Shown: one piece after another, positions 6,123-10,064 of the stretch | Numbering within the stretch: position 1 is the stretch's first letter | Layout: each line of letters opens with the position of its first letter | Source: Escherichia phage CBA6 | Length of the DNA stretch: 10,064 bases | Direction: 5' to 3' (one strand) | Sequence record: KM389298.1 | Program-made: the position numbers and the translations under genes | The notes under the pieces: model-generated | Told to the model about the DNA's origin: nothing | Seen by the model: the letters and a program-made list of their open reading frames with translations, nothing else | The model's database searches: none

Positions 6123-6572
6123 TCAGTATCGACTATCACTGACCGTTCTGTATCGCACCCCTTGAAACTGTTTAGCGAGTTTAACAAATTCCATCGCTGG
6201 CAAATCAACTTTGTAGACCTTCATGCGCTGTTTGCCGTCCATGTTCAACGCAGCGACAAATCGGTGAGAACCGTCAACAACGTAATTGTCAGAAGACACC
6301 CAAACTCGACCCATGGGCTTCTTATTTCTGATCTGCTTCATAATCTTCCAGACCTTCATTTTATTGATTTCGTTCTGGGTAAGACGAAGCATTTTGATAG
6401 GCACTTGCGCAGCATCTATAGACACGCCGTTGTCTTCAAGATATTTGTGAAAATCTTCTTGTTTGTCTGCATCGATTTGCGGCATAGAAGAACGAGAAAG
6501 CCCGAGGTTCCCAACAGGAATCCTCAGGCCATTTATGATATTCATCCAGTCAATAAAGGATGTAAGGAACAT
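6123..6572 (-). CDS. ParB/Srx-fold (ParB-like nuclease / sulfiredoxin superfamily) domain protein, 149 aa
   Basis: Segment ...MLRLTQNEINKMKVWKIMKQIRNKKPMGRVWVSSDNYVVDGSHRFVAALNMDGKQRMKVYKV matches the ParB/Srx pattern (hydrophobic strand, then DG-x-HR-x-x-A, then hydrophobic strand). ATG 6572..6570 preceded by GAGGTG. Confidence 0.5.
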   Translation of the reverse strand: MFLTSFIDWMNIINGLRIPVGNLGLSRSSMPQIDADKQEDFHKYLEDNGVSIDAAQVPIKMLRLTQNEINKMKVWKIMKQIRNKKPMGRVWVSSDNYVVDGSHRFVAALNMDGKQRMKVYKVDLPAMEFVKLAKQFQGVRYRTVSDSRY

Positions 6573-6609: not shown

Positions 6610-6888
6610 TCATTCGGACTTAAACAACAATTCGCGAACAGAAGTCCCAACGATATTCTGGGTGTTCAACAAACGAGTTAAATCATCCATGTCATATGCT
6701 GAATTGGTGATATGACGCAAGATAATCGCCAACATTCCCTCCAGCGCTCTCCGATTGTTATTCTCTTCAATGTCAAACTTAATTTCAACAAATCGAGATA
6801 GCATTCTGGATTGAGCATGAGTTTCGTTGGTTTTGCTCTGTATAATATCTTTGATTTCCGAACGAGCAATACTTCTTTGATCTGTCAT
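6610..6888 (-). CDS. Hypothetical protein, 92 aa, starting MTDQ
   Basis: ORF with ATG 6888..6886 preceded by AAGGAA. Its leader and first four codons are near-identical to those of the 6941..7447 gene. Confidence 0.6.
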   Translation of the reverse strand: MTDQRSIARSEIKDIIQSKTNETHAQSRMLSRFVEIKFDIEENNNRRALEGMLAIILRHITNSAYDMDDLTRLLNTQNIVGTSVRELLFKSE

Positions 6889-6946
6889 GATATAGTTCCT
6901 TCATTTCAAATGGGCGGGGCAAAGATACCCCGCCGTGGGTTTATAG
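6877..6946 (-). repeat. Copy A of a ~70-bp regulatory cassette: TATAAA box, GC-rich stem-loop, CATTTGAAATGAAGGAA leader, ATG ACA GAT CAA
   Basis: Aligned by eye to 7436..7505 at roughly 80% identity. Stem-loop GGCGGGG-n8-CCCCGCC at 6913..6934. Confidence 0.6.
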
Positions 6947-7447
6947 GGTAATAAGTGATACGGTAAAAACCATCGTCCCATCTGTTGTCATTTTTCTTGA
7001 AACTGGGAAGACGCGAGGCTGGCAGAATATCCATTCTTTCTCCATGGACGCCAAGTCCAGCATATCCATTTCTGATTCATCGTCTTTGTTCACAAATTTT
7101 TCTAGAGAACCAAAGACATTAAGCCCCTCTGGGAGTCCGTTTCGATGTTTGTAACAAATGCGAGCAACAGCTCTGGTTCCATACGATTTAGAAAATTGTT
7201 TGGCCACATGCTTCAGTTCGCTGAAACTAAGACAAGAATCCCATGTCTGAAACATGTCTCCTCGTTCAAACATCATCTCCAAACGCGCAACGTCCTCTTT
7301 AGGCAACCCGCGATAAAGTGTGGTCATCTGCGGTTCGCGTAATTCTTGCACCAGACCACGGATGGCAGGGGAAACAGTGCCAGGGCGCATGATGTGGGAC
7401 TTATCATGGACGAGGTAAAATAAATCTTGAATTTGTTGATCGGTCAT
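6941..7447 (-). CDS. Candidate mono-ADP-ribosyltransferase (R-S-ExE class), 168 aa
   Basis: Three motifs in the order and approximate spacing of R-S-E ADP-ribosyltransferases: 'TLYRG' (aromatic-Arg), 'LSFSE' (S-x-S) and 'EKEWIF' (E-x-E followed by hydrophobics). ATG 7447..7445 preceded by AAGGAA. Assignment is from motifs only. Confidence 0.45.
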   Translation of the reverse strand: MTDQQIQDLFYLVHDKSHIMRPGTVSPAIRGLVQELREPQMTTLYRGLPKEDVARLEMMFERGDMFQTWDSCLSFSELKHVAKQFSKSYGTRAVARICYKHRNGLPEGLNVFGSLEKFVNKDDESEMDMLDLASMEKEWIFCQPRVFPVSRKMTTDGTMVFTVSLITL

Positions 7448-7505
7448 GATGTATTTCCTTCATTTCAAATAGGCGGGGTAATCATACCCCACCCTAAGTT
7501 ATAGA
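7436..7505 (-). repeat. Copy B of the ~70-bp regulatory cassette (TATAAC box, stem-loop, shared leader, ATG ACC GAT CAA)
   Basis: Stem-loop GGTGGGGTA-tgat-TACCCCGCC in minus-strand RNA (plus-strand 7472..7493). Identity to copy A covers leader, SD, start codon and codons 2-4. Confidence 0.6.
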
Positions 7506-7830: not shown

Positions 7831-7861
7831 TAAAAGTAAAAATCCCCAACGTTTGTTGGGG
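7831..7861 (-). terminator. Rho-independent terminator downstream of the ACP-like gene
   Basis: Minus-strand RNA: CCCCAAC-aaac-GTTGGGG followed by ATTTTTACTTTT. Confidence 0.6.
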
Positions 7862-7869
7862 ATCTTCAG

Positions 7870-8196
7870 TTACTTGCGCAGGGCAACCACGTATTCGGCA
7901 AGTTCACCCATGGTCGGGTCGTCGCCTTTACCGCCCAGCCAGCCATCAGAGATCTCGACATTGAACTCTTCTTCTAGTTCCATGACGATTTCGATGGCAT
8001 CAAGATCGTCGCCGCCGAGGTCTTTCTTGGTGCGGAGGCCAGCCAGTTTATCCAGGGCGTCATTCATAATCACTTCCGCGTCGACGATGCCTTTGATGCT
8101 GCTCTTGTCTTCGTCACTGACTTCCAGGTTCAGATTGTCAGTGGCGTACTGAGCCAGGTGACGCATTACTTCAACATAAGTTGGTTTGTTTGACAT
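7870..8196 (-). CDS. Acyl carrier protein (ACP)-like protein with Asp in place of the phosphopantetheine-attachment Ser, about 108 aa
   Basis: Core ...KKDLGGDDLDAIEIVMELEEEFNVEISD... aligns with canonical ACP helix II (E. coli ...[27 protein letters not shown]...), but the conserved DSL Ser is Asp (codon GAT at 8015..8013, checked on the DNA). Start taken as ATG 8196..8194; ATG 8202..8200 is an alternative. Confidence 0.7.
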   Translation of the reverse strand: MSNKPTYVEVMRHLAQYATDNLNLEVSDEDKSSIKGIVDAEVIMNDALDKLAGLRTKKDLGGDDLDAIEIVMELEEEFNVEISDGWLGGKGDDPTMGELAEYVVALRK

Positions 8197-8215
8197 AAGC
8201 ATATCTCAAAATGAA

Positions 8216-8231
8216 GGCGGGTTTCCCCGCC
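8216..8231 (-). terminator. Stem-loop between the large upstream gene and the ACP-like gene (weak terminator or RNA processing/stability element)
   Basis: GGCGGG-gaaa-CCCGCC followed on the minus strand by TTCATTTTGAG. Same stem composition and YATTTGA tail as the other intergenic hairpins. Confidence 0.4.
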
Positions 8232-8239
8232 AGTTGAAT

Positions 8240-10064
8240 TTAGATTTTGACTTCTTTTTCAGACAGTTCGGCAGTGACGGTGTATTTCACCCCATCAACT
8301 TCCACATCCATAGTGGATTCTTCCAAATCCAGGTCGGTAAACCAACCATGGCCTGCAACAATCCCATAAACTACCTTGGACAGCGTTTTGTTCAGGGCGC
8401 GGACTTCGTTAATGGCTGCTTTTGCTGCATCACCAATCCAACTTTCGATCAGCTTTTTCTGAGTCTCTTCCGGTACGCTGGTGATCATCGGCGATTTAAC
8501 AAACGCATTGTATTCAGCCAGGGCATTAGCGATCAGCTGATCAGCGACATTCAGTTTTTTACCGTCCGTCTGTTTTTTGATAACAGACGCGATGCTCGGC
8601 AGTGAAGATGCGCCTTTGATTTTCACATTCAATTCACGACTCATATAGACATCGGTTGATTCTACAGAAGAAGTCTTCGGTGAAAATCCATAGTCGCGAA
8701 TGCCGTTTGCTGACAGGAAATCAGCCGCTTCTTTGCCATATTTTGAAGCCAGACCCGTAGCGTTGCCTTTTCCAACCAGTTCATCACGGTAGAATTTCAG
8801 AACTTTCTGTTTTGCCTTCAATGCTTCACGGCGCACATTGTCTGCAAAGAATTCAGCAGCACTGATATTCTTTGTCATGGCGCGGTTAACCATTGGGACA
8901 CTTTCCAGATTTACAATGAAGACTTCCGGCCCACCAAACACATGAACACCCATGGCAGTCAAATCCTGTGCCACCTTAGCCCGAACAATCGGAGAATCTG
9001 CAGTGATAGGCATTGTTTTCAGGTTGATGATACCATCCTTGACAATGGTGTAATTGCGATAACGCCATGTATCCAGCTCTTCAGGAAGTTCATATTTCTT
9101 CTGTACAAACTCGGGCACAACAACCGTTCCGTGTTGAACTGTCTGCACACTGATGTTAGGACGTTCTGAATTATAGACCAAATTGCTGATCGGGACAATC
9201 CCTTTATCATCTGCTGGATTGAATTCCGGCGTCCAATCTTCGTGCTCGGCCAGTTTGAGCGCCAGGGCTTTACGCTCTTCTTTAGAAGTCGCATTCGCAA
9301 TCTCTTCGGCCAACTTGTCTTCGGTGTCGTCAACTTTTTGTATAGTACCGCGCCCAATGCTCTTGTAAGAGAATAGCGGATGCTTGGTGACGATAGAGAC
9401 ATCTGCTTCAGCCAAATACGTCAGAACATCAACAATGGTGGTGGCGTCTTCAGCCGGAACCATATTATAATCGATGCCATCAACTCCTCGCAGAGATTCG
9501 TCTACGATAGCCTGAGTCAGATCGACTTTGATGTTGGAGTAATCCTGCTTGGTGAAACAGTTGCTGTATTGTTTGATGAAGCGGACGTCACCCGTTTTCT
9601 TCAGCGCAGCCCAAACCAAATCTGCGTCCATGGTATACACGCCGTAAAATGCCAGCACGTATGCCGCTTGGATGTCTGCCAGATTATCCAGCTGGTCGAT
9701 CATGTTGGGGTTTACAACCCACAGCTGAGAAACGCTTTCAGGGATGCTGACGTGGCCAATAGGGTGCTCTTCATCAGGATGCACGGCTAAAACAGTCGCC
9801 ACGCCATTTTCAACATAAATGGCATGGGTGTAAACCAGGGGAACATCGACCACCACTTTCGGTGAAGAAGTTTTTAGCACGTTTTCCAATTCGGTCTGAT
9901 ATTCATTCTGGCCTTCAGCGAATACGTGGGTCGCACCAGAACGTTCTGCCATTAGCGCCAGCAGTTCGCGATTACAATACCAACCGTATTCGATGAAGGT
10001 AATGTTATCAAACGCTTTGGGCAGTACTTCAGCGGCATCCAGGATTTCATTAGAACGCCAGCAG
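8240..10064 (-). CDS. Large hypothetical protein (at least 570 aa in window, probably longer); N-terminus likely beyond the right edge
   Basis: ORF 8240..9952 in the track; the same frame stays open with protein-like sequence (…SNEILDAAEVLPKAFDNITFIEYGWYCNRELLAL-MAERSG…) from 9953 to 10064, and no SD precedes ATG 9952. No Walker A, polymerase, ligase or other catalytic motif recognised. Confidence 0.6.
   Translation of the reverse strand, partial: CWRSNEILDAAEVLPKAFDNITFIEYGWYCNRELLALMAERSGATHVFAEGQNEYQTELENVLKTSSPKVVVDVPLVYTHAIYVENGVATVLAVHPDEEHPIGHVSIPESVSQLWVVNPNMIDQLDNLADIQAAYVLAFYGVYTMDADLVWAALKKTGDVRFIKQYSNCFTKQDYSNIKVDLTQAIVDESLRGVDGIDYNMVPAEDATTIVDVLTYLAEADVSIVTKHPLFSYKSIGRGTIQKVDDTEDKLAEEIANATSKEERKALALKLAEHEDWTPEFNPADDKGIVPISNLVYNSERPNISVQTVQHGTVVVPEFVQKKYELPEELDTWRYRNYTIVKDGIINLKTMPITADSPIVRAKVAQDLTAMGVHVFGGPEVFIVNLESVPMVNRAMTKNISAAEFFADNVRREALKAKQKVLKFYRDELVGKGNATGLASKYGKEAADFLSANGIRDYGFSPKTSSVESTDVYMSRELNVKIKGASSLPSIASVIKKQTDGKKLNVADQLIANALAEYNAFVKSPMITSVPEETQKKLIESWIGDAAKAAINEVRALNKTLSKVVYGIVAGHGWFTDLDLEESTMDVEVDGVKYTVTAELSEKEVKI

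Follow-up and report, generated by a model that had tools for sequence, protein, structure and literature searches.

A short gene of Escherichia phage CBA6 is labelled 'acyl carrier protein' in both RefSeq and PHROGs, and the question it raises is what a phage would do with an acyl carrier protein (ACP) in which the serine that bears the phosphopantetheine is replaced by an aspartate. The window, i.e., the whole 10,064-nucleotide stretch of sequence record KM389298.1 that was analysed, is ~99% identical at the DNA level to the Salmonella phages SS3 and SS9 and the Escherichia phage PhaxI and 96–98% identical to CBA120 and PhiSH19, identities that indicate Kuttervirus DNA (Ackermannviridae, Vi1-like). 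According to the ORF list, every substantial gene of the window is on the minus strand (Table 1), and in the annotation of CBA120 the region is a block of small genes, mostly without an assigned function, with replication genes on its flanks. No FAS, PKS, NRPS, PPTase, or acyltransferase genes were found among the window ORFs with Pfam and PHROGs, nor were any present among the 36 annotated genes within 12 kb on either side of the ACP-like gene in CBA120. In the open-access papers and preprints searched, no statement was found on a missing Ser or a systematic Asp/Glu in its place, and the literature found on the Ackermannviridae ACP-like protein was limited to annotation or proteomics tables, including a virion proteomics table with a single peptide of the protein (PMC10892097). 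A Kuttervirus transcriptome that times the expression of the gene was likewise not found in the literature.

Table 1. Features of the window at and around the ACP-like gene, numbered from the first letter of the window
Feature	Position	Strand	Basis
Strong hairpin (-19.8 kcal/mol) and T-run directly 3' of the ACP-like stop	7837..7868	-	Sequence, fold
CDS, ACP-like protein (108 aa + stop)	7870..8196	-	CBA120 orf142 homologue, phrog_4154
Residues 59-84: loop end, helix II (recognition helix), helix III start	7945..8022	-	17/26 identical to AcpP 31-56
Codon GAT = Asp64, aligned with AcpP Ser36	8005..8007	-	Codon 64 = 8196-189; AcpP alignment
Residues 24-54: hypervariable insert separating helices I and II	8035..8127	-	AF2 model, DNA identity, dN
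GC-rich hairpin then T-rich tract, terminator-/attenuator-like	8216..8231	-	Sequence; structure kept in relatives
C-terminal 607 codons of a 738-aa VWA/MIDAS protein	8240..10064	-	phrog_2426; CBA120 orf143 homologue

The ACP-like ORF runs from an ATG at 8196 to a stop at 7872..7870 on the minus strand and encodes 108 aa. An in-frame ATG at 8202 would lengthen the protein by 'ML', and the homologues begin with MSNKP or MSSKP. That the product is a homologue of ACPs had been proposed from the letters of the DNA alone, and the profile and structure comparisons bear this out. The Pfam PP-binding model (PF00550) matches above its cutoff (31.1 bits; cutoff, 20.8; E, 2.9e-7), over residues 59–103 only, while PP-binding_2 reaches 25.8 bits, under its cutoff of 32, and phrog_4154, the 'acyl carrier protein' profile, aligns from end to end (E, 2.4e-57; residues 1–108 on profile positions 1–108). 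When a family profile built from 23 homologues was compared with PDB sequences, the best 60 of the 113 matches at E ≤ 1 were all ACPs (best E, 1.5e-7), with residues 53–84 aligned to the loop–helix II region of ACPs from bacteria, plastids, and mitochondria. A structure prediction had been suggested as a check on the fold, and the AlphaFold2 (AF2) model (pLDDT, 80; pTM, 0.74) has the four-helix ACP fold, with helices at residues 7–21, 28–38, 45–52, 64–78, 84–89, and 96–107; the best 50 Foldseek matches of the model in the PDB are all ACPs (TM, 0.7–0.79, normalised to the target). The 11 NCBIfam ACP models that were hit each scored far under the cutoff (~35 bits, with 66–106 required; e.g., TIGR00517, 35.3 bits with a cutoff of 70.45). 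The protein is thus a member of the ACP-fold superfamily, yet it fails the tests for a functional carrier, because the Ser is absent and the scores stay at ~35 bits against equivalog cutoffs of 66–106.

The absence of the Ser is a property of the whole family. Asp64, the first residue of the predicted helix 64–78, aligns with the phosphopantetheine-bearing Ser36 of Escherichia coli AcpP, which confirms the replacement that the original prediction had read from the sequence; the codon itself had been placed at 8015..8013, 8 nt off and within the codons for Gly61 and Gly62, and the GAT is at 8007..8005. By direct count, the position is occupied by D in 10 and E in 15 of 25 phage loci and by D in 9 and E in 23 of 32 cluster representatives, with Ser in none, so that an acidic residue is fixed in 25/25 loci and 32/32 representatives. 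The alignment with phage and host ACPs, which had been put forward as a way to see whether the Asp is conserved, supports conservation of the acidic residue and not of a strict Asp, with Glu in many of the homologues. The D/E replacement spans Kuttervirus, Aglimvirinae, Taipeivirus, Limestonevirus-type, Serratia 3M-type, and Erwinia Bue1-type phages, with motif variants such as DLQCDDLD in CRW-SP2 (Aglimvirinae), HLGGDELD in Taipeivirus, DLWFDELD in the Serratia 3M-type, and FAMDELD in the Erwinia Bue1-type phages, and the loss of the Ser is therefore older than the family's diversification.

Two trivial readings of the locus can be weighed at this point, namely that the protein is still a carrier, by way of another residue or an unknown chemistry, or that the Asp arose as an artefact of sequencing or annotation. 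Both the database name 'acyl carrier protein' and the score above the Pfam PP-binding threshold would fit a carrier, whereas the curated AcpP equivalog models, with cutoffs of 66–106 and scores of ~35 bits, would not, and the annotated genes nearby include no PPTase or acyl-ACP enzyme. Starting from GAT, any Ser codon (TCN, AGY) takes two substitutions, as had been noted when a single base error was judged unlikely, and that judgement gains weight from the presence of the same protein in several deposited genomes (100% identical in phages SS9, 38, PhiSH19, and SeKF_64) and from D/E in all homologues examined, whose genomes were sequenced independently. Sequencing error and a pseudogene are ruled out by these identical proteins, the universal D/E, and purifying selection (see below). 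The alignments of the family homologues hold no alternative conserved Ser, so an alternative attachment site is unlikely and attachment at another Ser can be rejected for the family. PPTases transfer onto the hydroxyl of a Ser, so a protein with Asp or Glu at the acceptor position would be unable to receive 4'-phosphopantetheine and would not be an acyl carrier; on chemical grounds, neither a holo nor an acylated form is expected where that hydroxyl is missing. Even the replacement S36T leaves E. coli AcpP non-functional (PMC3340395). Together these points make a surviving carrier or an artefact extremely improbable.

If not a carrier, the protein is nevertheless maintained. A tblastn search placed a homologue, each covering at least 80% of the query, in 270 phage records, and when 1.8 billion representatives were searched exhaustively with a profile, the full-length family amounted to only about ten 50%-identity clusters. 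Between alleles, residues 55–108 (helices II–IV) have a dN/dS of ~0.1 at a dS of 0.5–1.9, which is near saturation, and such a ratio indicates a functional protein under purifying selection and not a decaying relic. Residues 24–54, modelled by AF2 as two extra short helices (H28–38 and H45–52), have a dN of 0.4–0.7. Within the family D63, L65, D66, E69, E75, I82, and D84 do not vary, and M72 and E76 hardly do; the N-terminal helix is also conserved (K4, Y7, V10, M11, L14, A15, Y17, A18, and N21–N23), as is a loop, GW.G..GDDPT.GEL, that precedes helix IV.

The likeness to AcpP lies in the four-helix fold, in the acidity (pI 4.2 vs 4.05 for AcpP), and in residues 59–84 (DLGGDDLDAIEIVMELEEEFNVEISD), where 17 of the 26 positions are identical to AcpP 31–56, among them D35, L37, D38, E41, V43, M44, E47, E48, E49, F50, E53, I54, and D56. 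The acidic recognition helix, which the original prediction had expected to be kept, is thus close to the consensus of FAS ACPs. Compared with AcpP, the phage protein is ~30 residues longer, with the conserved N-terminal helix and the hypervariable two-helix insert, has the extra loop between helices III and IV, and possesses Asp/Glu at Ser36; it is also the product of a lytic phage, and no FAS genes lie near its own. The residues by which AcpP docks (D35, L37, D38, E41, the L42-V43-M44 triad, E47, E48, and D56) are invariant or nearly so in the phage family, and the same AcpP residues dock SpoT and FAS enzymes, helix II being the face that AcpP presents to FAS enzymes, AcpS, and SpoT (PMC3340395).

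This pattern suggests a role in protein binding. The gene product is best read as a pseudo-ACP, i.e., a stable acidic four-helix ACP fold that is not an acyl carrier and that would act as a protein-binding module through the docking surface of helix II. Its partners would most likely be the host protein or proteins that normally dock AcpP via helix II, with glycerol-3-phosphate acyltransferase (PlsB), AcpS, enzymes of FAS and of lipid A synthesis, MukB, SpoT, and IscS as candidate targets, and during infection the pseudo-ACP might occupy or titrate these clients as a permanently cargo-less ACP. Host clients of AcpP are favoured because independent lineages, with differing neighbours and hosts, keep helix II near the FAS consensus, and a universal, slowly evolving set of partners explains a shared helix II better than lineage-specific phage partners do. 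We put the probability that a non-acylatable pseudo-ACP binds host AcpP clients via helix II, and probably titrates them, at somewhat under even. Conservation of helix II could in part reflect the stability of the fold. The carboxylate at the Ser position might mimic the phosphodiester of holo-ACP or might simply cap helix II; D, E, and N are good residues for the N-terminus of a helix, and the acidic replacement therefore need not be a phosphate mimic.

Host-specific mimicry or a recent capture of a host gene was considered and left no sign, in that the family profile is no closer to enterobacterial AcpP than to other ACPs (30.5 bits for E. coli AcpP vs 34.8 bits for the ACP of Bacillus subtilis, with the Plasmodium ACPs also slightly above AcpP). 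As far as the profile can tell, this lack of host-specific mimicry or recent host capture would count against the host-client reading.

The immediate surroundings of the gene point to a separable unit. Relative to CBA120, DNA identity falls to 28–80% at 7860–8160, which corresponds to the ACP-like gene, compared with ~99% on both sides, and the insert (8035..8127) is the core of this divergence island, with 28–68% identity against flanks of ~99%; across Kuttervirus genomes that are otherwise near-identical, the ACP-like protein is 61–77% identical. Upstream, between the VWA stop (8240) and the ACP-like start (8196), sits the hairpin at 8231..8216, and hairpins of differing sequence occupy the same place in CBA120, CRW-SP2 (Aglimvirinae), UPM 2146 (Taipeivirus), and the Erwinia Bue1-type phages, so that the structure, present in four genera with different sequences, is a conserved feature. 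The downstream hairpin (7837..7868), conserved in CBA120 and CRW-SP2, is likely an intrinsic terminator that closes the gene module. The stretch from the upstream hairpin to the start codon contains no sigma-70-like promoter, and expression of the ACP-like gene probably depends on read-through. The whole looks like a hairpin-bounded cassette that is exchanged by recombination, and comparable promoter/stem-loop cassettes occur in T4-type phages. Neither the hypervariable residues 24–54 nor the swapping of alleles is explained by the binding of highly conserved host enzymes.

The large protein encoded upstream offers a different partner, and a role as a non-catalytic subunit of this neighbour had been raised alongside that of a decoy. 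The pseudo-ACP would be an accessory subunit or ligand of the VWA/MIDAS protein, with the Asp/Glu completing the metal coordination of the MIDAS. The neighbour matches phrog_2426 (E, 1e-278), and although most of its VWA domain lies past the end of the window, the full-length CBA120 protein has an N-terminal match to Pfam VWA (31.1 bits) and a complete MIDAS motif (DISGS...T97...D127); none of the motif residues D24, S26, S28, T97, and D127 varies in 37 homologues, the most distant of them at 34% identity. The model of the protein (pLDDT, 87) resembles proteins with a VWA domain and a beta-sandwich (4fx5, archaeal ArnB, and Sec23/24); in the fold search nothing informative turned up for the C-terminal ~400 residues, and a PDB sequence search with the protein gave no match. 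MIDAS sites of the integrin type (I-domain) bind an Asp or Glu of the ligand, and a ligand carboxylate classically completes the metal site, so that an exposed residue at the tip of helix II, whose replacement of Ser is always a carboxylate in the Ackermannviridae, is conceivable as such a ligand, and in this form the subunit proposal is at its strongest.

Gene order gives this pairing further support, as a small ORF, a VWA protein of ~735 aa, and the ACP-like gene follow one another in Cvivirinae, Aglimvirinae, Taipeivirus, and Bue1-type phages, although synteny is generally kept in this phage family and adjacency alone is weak evidence. Across 75 viral loci with a VWA homologue, in which ORFs of at least 50 aa were searched with the HMM of the ACP-like family, including at E values up to 50 without filters, an ACP-like ORF was found solely in Ackermannviridae-type loci. 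In the ~50 other loci, which include the RB43/RB16/KP15-like T4-type phages along with many contigs from jumbo phages or metagenomes, even permissive thresholds brought up no ACP-like ORF within 4 kb. Conversely, Ser-less ACP-like proteins occur in other phages that lack a VWA neighbour, and an obligate pairing, disfavoured by these comparisons, was rejected, each family having been found with no member of the other nearby. Even where both are present, the Serratia 3M-type phages have ~870 nt and another gene between the two, the VWA gene of locus L032 is followed by a different gene, the structurally conserved, terminator-like hairpin separates the two genes, and the alleles of the ACP-like protein differ by ~37% next to VWA proteins that are ~98% identical. 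The subunit option is weakened because the VWA family is found without the ACP-like gene, Ser-less ACPs are found without the VWA gene, and a hairpin lies between them, and we regard a dedicated role at the MIDAS as unlikely.

Beyond the Ackermannviridae, further short ACP-like proteins whose Ser position is taken by Glu or Asp are among the next-best matches of the profile search, and those whose genomic setting could be identified lie on phage contigs. (The search returned 50 D/E domains among ~290 matches, which is not an estimate of frequency given a profile biased towards D/E.) P0046 (NLGADELD) is encoded among genes for ThyX, an HNH protein, and a replication initiator, and P0070 (GVDDLD), on a 147-kb contig, among genes for ribonucleotide reductase, a Gam-like protein, thymidylate synthase, and DHFR. 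The Ser-less proteins of locus L079 (NLGADELD) and of the 147-kb contig L087 (GVDDLD) have a helix II near the FAS-type consensus, and the genes downstream of these two are unrelated; no common neighbour of the Ser-less ACP-like genes was found. In the Aeromonas phages Aswh_1 and ZPAH1, an ACP-like domain with Glu (DLGLDELD; DLGLDELDVIELVMILEEEF) is fused to the N-terminus of rIIB, the fusion protein matching Pfam PP-binding at 32.3 bits on residues 25–68 and the rIIB core at E 5e-99 (phrog_609), and in Vibrio phage 277E43-1 a domain with Asn for Ser (NLGFDNLD) is followed by a C-terminal extension. In these three phages, too, helix II stays close to the FAS-type consensus. Fusion to rIIB as a general rule was rejected, being confined to two closely related phages. 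As these sequences show, the Ser-less ACP of the Ackermannviridae is not an isolated case.

Small ACP-like genes of this kind resemble the phage 'acyl carrier proteins' of phrog_5934, which are likewise small, stand-alone, and located in the early or DNA-metabolism regions of large lytic phages. A member of that group, gp111 of Xanthomonas phage phiXF1, sits between gyrB and gyrA and retains the Ser (EDLGADSLD), and may be a real carrier; the Ser is lacking in the Ackermannviridae family and in L079, L087, the rIIB of Aswh_1, and 277E43-1.

The fusions raise the possibility that the partner is another phage protein or pathway, e.g., the rII system, and that the ACP fold serves merely as an acidic interaction domain. 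The rII system provides membrane or abortive-infection protection. Such a partner would suit the Ser-to-Glu domain on rIIB in Aswh_1 and ZPAH1, the Ser-to-Asn domain with its extension in 277E43-1, and a hairpin-bounded, often-swapped module with a hypervariable segment, features typical of diversification driven by host or defence. It is harder to reconcile with the restriction of the rIIB fusion to that one pair of phages, with the lack of any neighbour common to the Ser-less ACP-like genes, and with a helix II close to the FAS-type consensus, which a purely phage-internal contact would not need; a PADLOC search for a link to defence or anti-defence yielded only one marginal match (E, 0.004). 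We consider a phage-internal partner to be quite unlikely.

For binding to host AcpP clients, known systems offer precedents. In Plasmodium falciparum, a mitochondrial ACP (mACP) with Phe in place of Ser is a binding subunit that contacts its partner through the acidic surface and the residue replacing the Ser (PMC8547962), and the phage protein is like it in being an ACP fold that selection maintains although the acceptor Ser is gone. The two differ in that the mACP replacement is Phe (Cys or Gly in Toxoplasma), co-evolved with the LYR protein Isd11 (Isd11-Nfs1), while the phage residue is always D/E. Outside the Apicomplexa, that study found Ser-less ACPs in one chromerid only (PMC8547962). 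In E. coli, apo-ACP inhibits glycerol-3-phosphate acyltransferase more than holo-ACP does and halts growth (PMC3896788). Apo-ACP and the S36T mutants (PMC3340395, PMC3896788) share with the phage protein a cargo-less state with an intact recognition helix; the former are the host's own laboratory or transient forms, whereas the latter is a diverged, dedicated gene with extra segments. Growth inhibition by apo-ACP (PMC3896788) and the Plasmodium binding subunit (PMC8547962) are therefore precedents for a pseudo-ACP that works by protein binding. The idea of a decoy, as originally predicted, gains indirect support from the FAS-type helix II across lineages and from the inhibition of growth by apo-ACP. 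SpoT has been reported not to bind apo-ACP (PMC3896788), so some of the candidate targets may be out of reach.

A broader version of the host-client reading would make Ser-to-Asp/Glu pseudo-ACPs a widespread, hitherto unrecognised class of phage host-takeover proteins, mimics of holo-ACP in which the carboxylate takes the place of the phosphodiester and that dock on AcpP clients, with the Ackermannviridae as the founding example; docking on, e.g., PlsB, AcpS, MukB, or SpoT would shut down or rewire lipid synthesis, chromosome organisation, or stress signalling. We view this generalisation as possible, on the unlikely side. It is distinct from class membership as such, as the Ackermannviridae pseudo-ACP is probably part of a wider phage class. 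A viral, carboxylate-substituted pseudo-ACP is new, Ser-less ACPs having been known from apicomplexan mitochondria, where hydrophobic or small residues replace the Ser (PMC8547962).

An amended annotation, 'ACP-like protein lacking the phosphopantetheine attachment serine', is due for this gene. A whole family of phages keeps a cargo-less ACP look-alike under strong selection, and unrelated phages have evolved or kept similar modules. ACP is among the best-connected proteins of bacteria, with roles in the synthesis of fatty acids, lipid A, lipoate, and biotin and with binding to SpoT, MukB, and IscS, and we know of no phage protein that targets this hub; the phage family is much used for the biocontrol of Salmonella and E. 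coli O157. Were the VWA/MIDAS neighbour or the rII system served instead, the pseudo-ACP would be a first way in to these phage proteins, which so far lack an explanation. If a host client of ACP is indeed titrated, this would account for a gene that databases mislabel as a working 'acyl carrier protein', supply a naturally occurring scaffold for inhibitors of an essential pathway, and reveal a new strategy of host takeover.

When the window is compared with phage CBA120, the ACP-like gene coincides with a sharp island of divergence (positions 7860-8160), within which DNA identity to CBA120 drops to 28-80% while both flanks remain at ~99%. Among Kuttervirus genomes that are otherwise near-identical, the identity of the ACP-like protein is only 61-77%. 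The gene has the appearance of a cassette that is bounded by hairpins and swapped through recombination. A hairpin followed by a T-tract occupies the position equivalent to that upstream of the ACP-like gene in CBA120 (L001) and at L002, L003, and L045, together representing four Ackermannviridae genera, and because the stem sequences differ between these genera, it is the structure that is conserved. No promoter-like site was found after the hairpin in the window, and this conserved element may act as an attenuator or as a stabilizer of the RNA 3'-end.

Features in the window and at loci of other phages (L-numbers)
Feature	Location	Strand	Details
65-nt direct repeat, two copies	window 6877-6941 and 7436-7500		83% identical
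168-aa protein	window 6941-7447	-	profile match
149-aa protein	window 6123-6572	-	profile match
GC-rich hairpin and T-tract	window 8216-8231		between VWA gene stop and ACP-like start
P0046, stand-alone ACP-like	L079:6001-6297		metagenomic phage contig; Ser to Glu
P0070, stand-alone ACP-like	L087:5001-5249		metagenomic phage contig; Ser to Asp
ACP-like protein	L081:2980-3513		Vibrio phage 277E43-1
ACP	L082:2992-3237		Xanthomonas phage phiXF1
rIIB with ACP-like N-terminus	L084:2992-4236		Aeromonas phage Aswh_1; ZPAH1 likewise

The upstream neighbor, a 738-aa VWA/MIDAS protein (window 8240-10064), belongs to phrog_2426, a family also found at loci L004-L078 and common in large phages, including the Ackermannviridae, T4-types related to RB43, RB16, and KP15, and jumbo phage contigs of 300-450 kb. 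The MIDAS residues are invariant across the family and the core, a VWA domain plus a beta-sandwich, resembles archaeal ArnB and Sec23/24.

Elsewhere in the window, the copies of the 65-nt repeat each lie upstream of one of two consecutive minus-strand genes and, read on that strand, contain a GGCGGGG...CCCCGCC hairpin, a ribosome-binding site, and a start codon, followed by identical first codons (MTDQ). The repeat looks like an intergenic cassette present twice. The 168-aa and 149-aa proteins are both small pieces of domains known from far larger phage proteins; the match of the former to the 1480-position 'RNA polymerase ADP-ribosylase' PHROG profile is confined to its C-terminal ~155 positions, and the latter has a weak ParB-like nuclease match.

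Outside of the Ackermannviridae, the P0046 and P0070 genes belong to large phages that are unrelated and lie there in regions for nucleotide metabolism or replication, with each stop codon overlapping the start of a ~200-aa gene that is unrelated between the two loci. The phiXF1 ACP retains the Ser and its gene is flanked by gyrB and gyrA. Four metagenomic proteins of 216-335 aa (P0034, P0040, P0043, and P0057), with mostly lipoprotein-like N-termini, carry two or three ACP-like repeats in tandem. Some of these repeats keep the Ser, and the others have D, E, F, P, or T at that position.

The ACP-like domain also occurs within longer proteins. The 277E43-1 protein is ACP-like in its N-terminal domain, where Asn takes the place of the Ser, and carries a ~95-aa C-terminal extension. 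In the rIIB proteins of Aswh_1 and ZPAH1, an N-terminal ACP-like domain in which Glu replaces the Ser precedes an HTH and then the rIIB core; these proteins are a natural fusion joining Ser-less ACP modules and the rII system.
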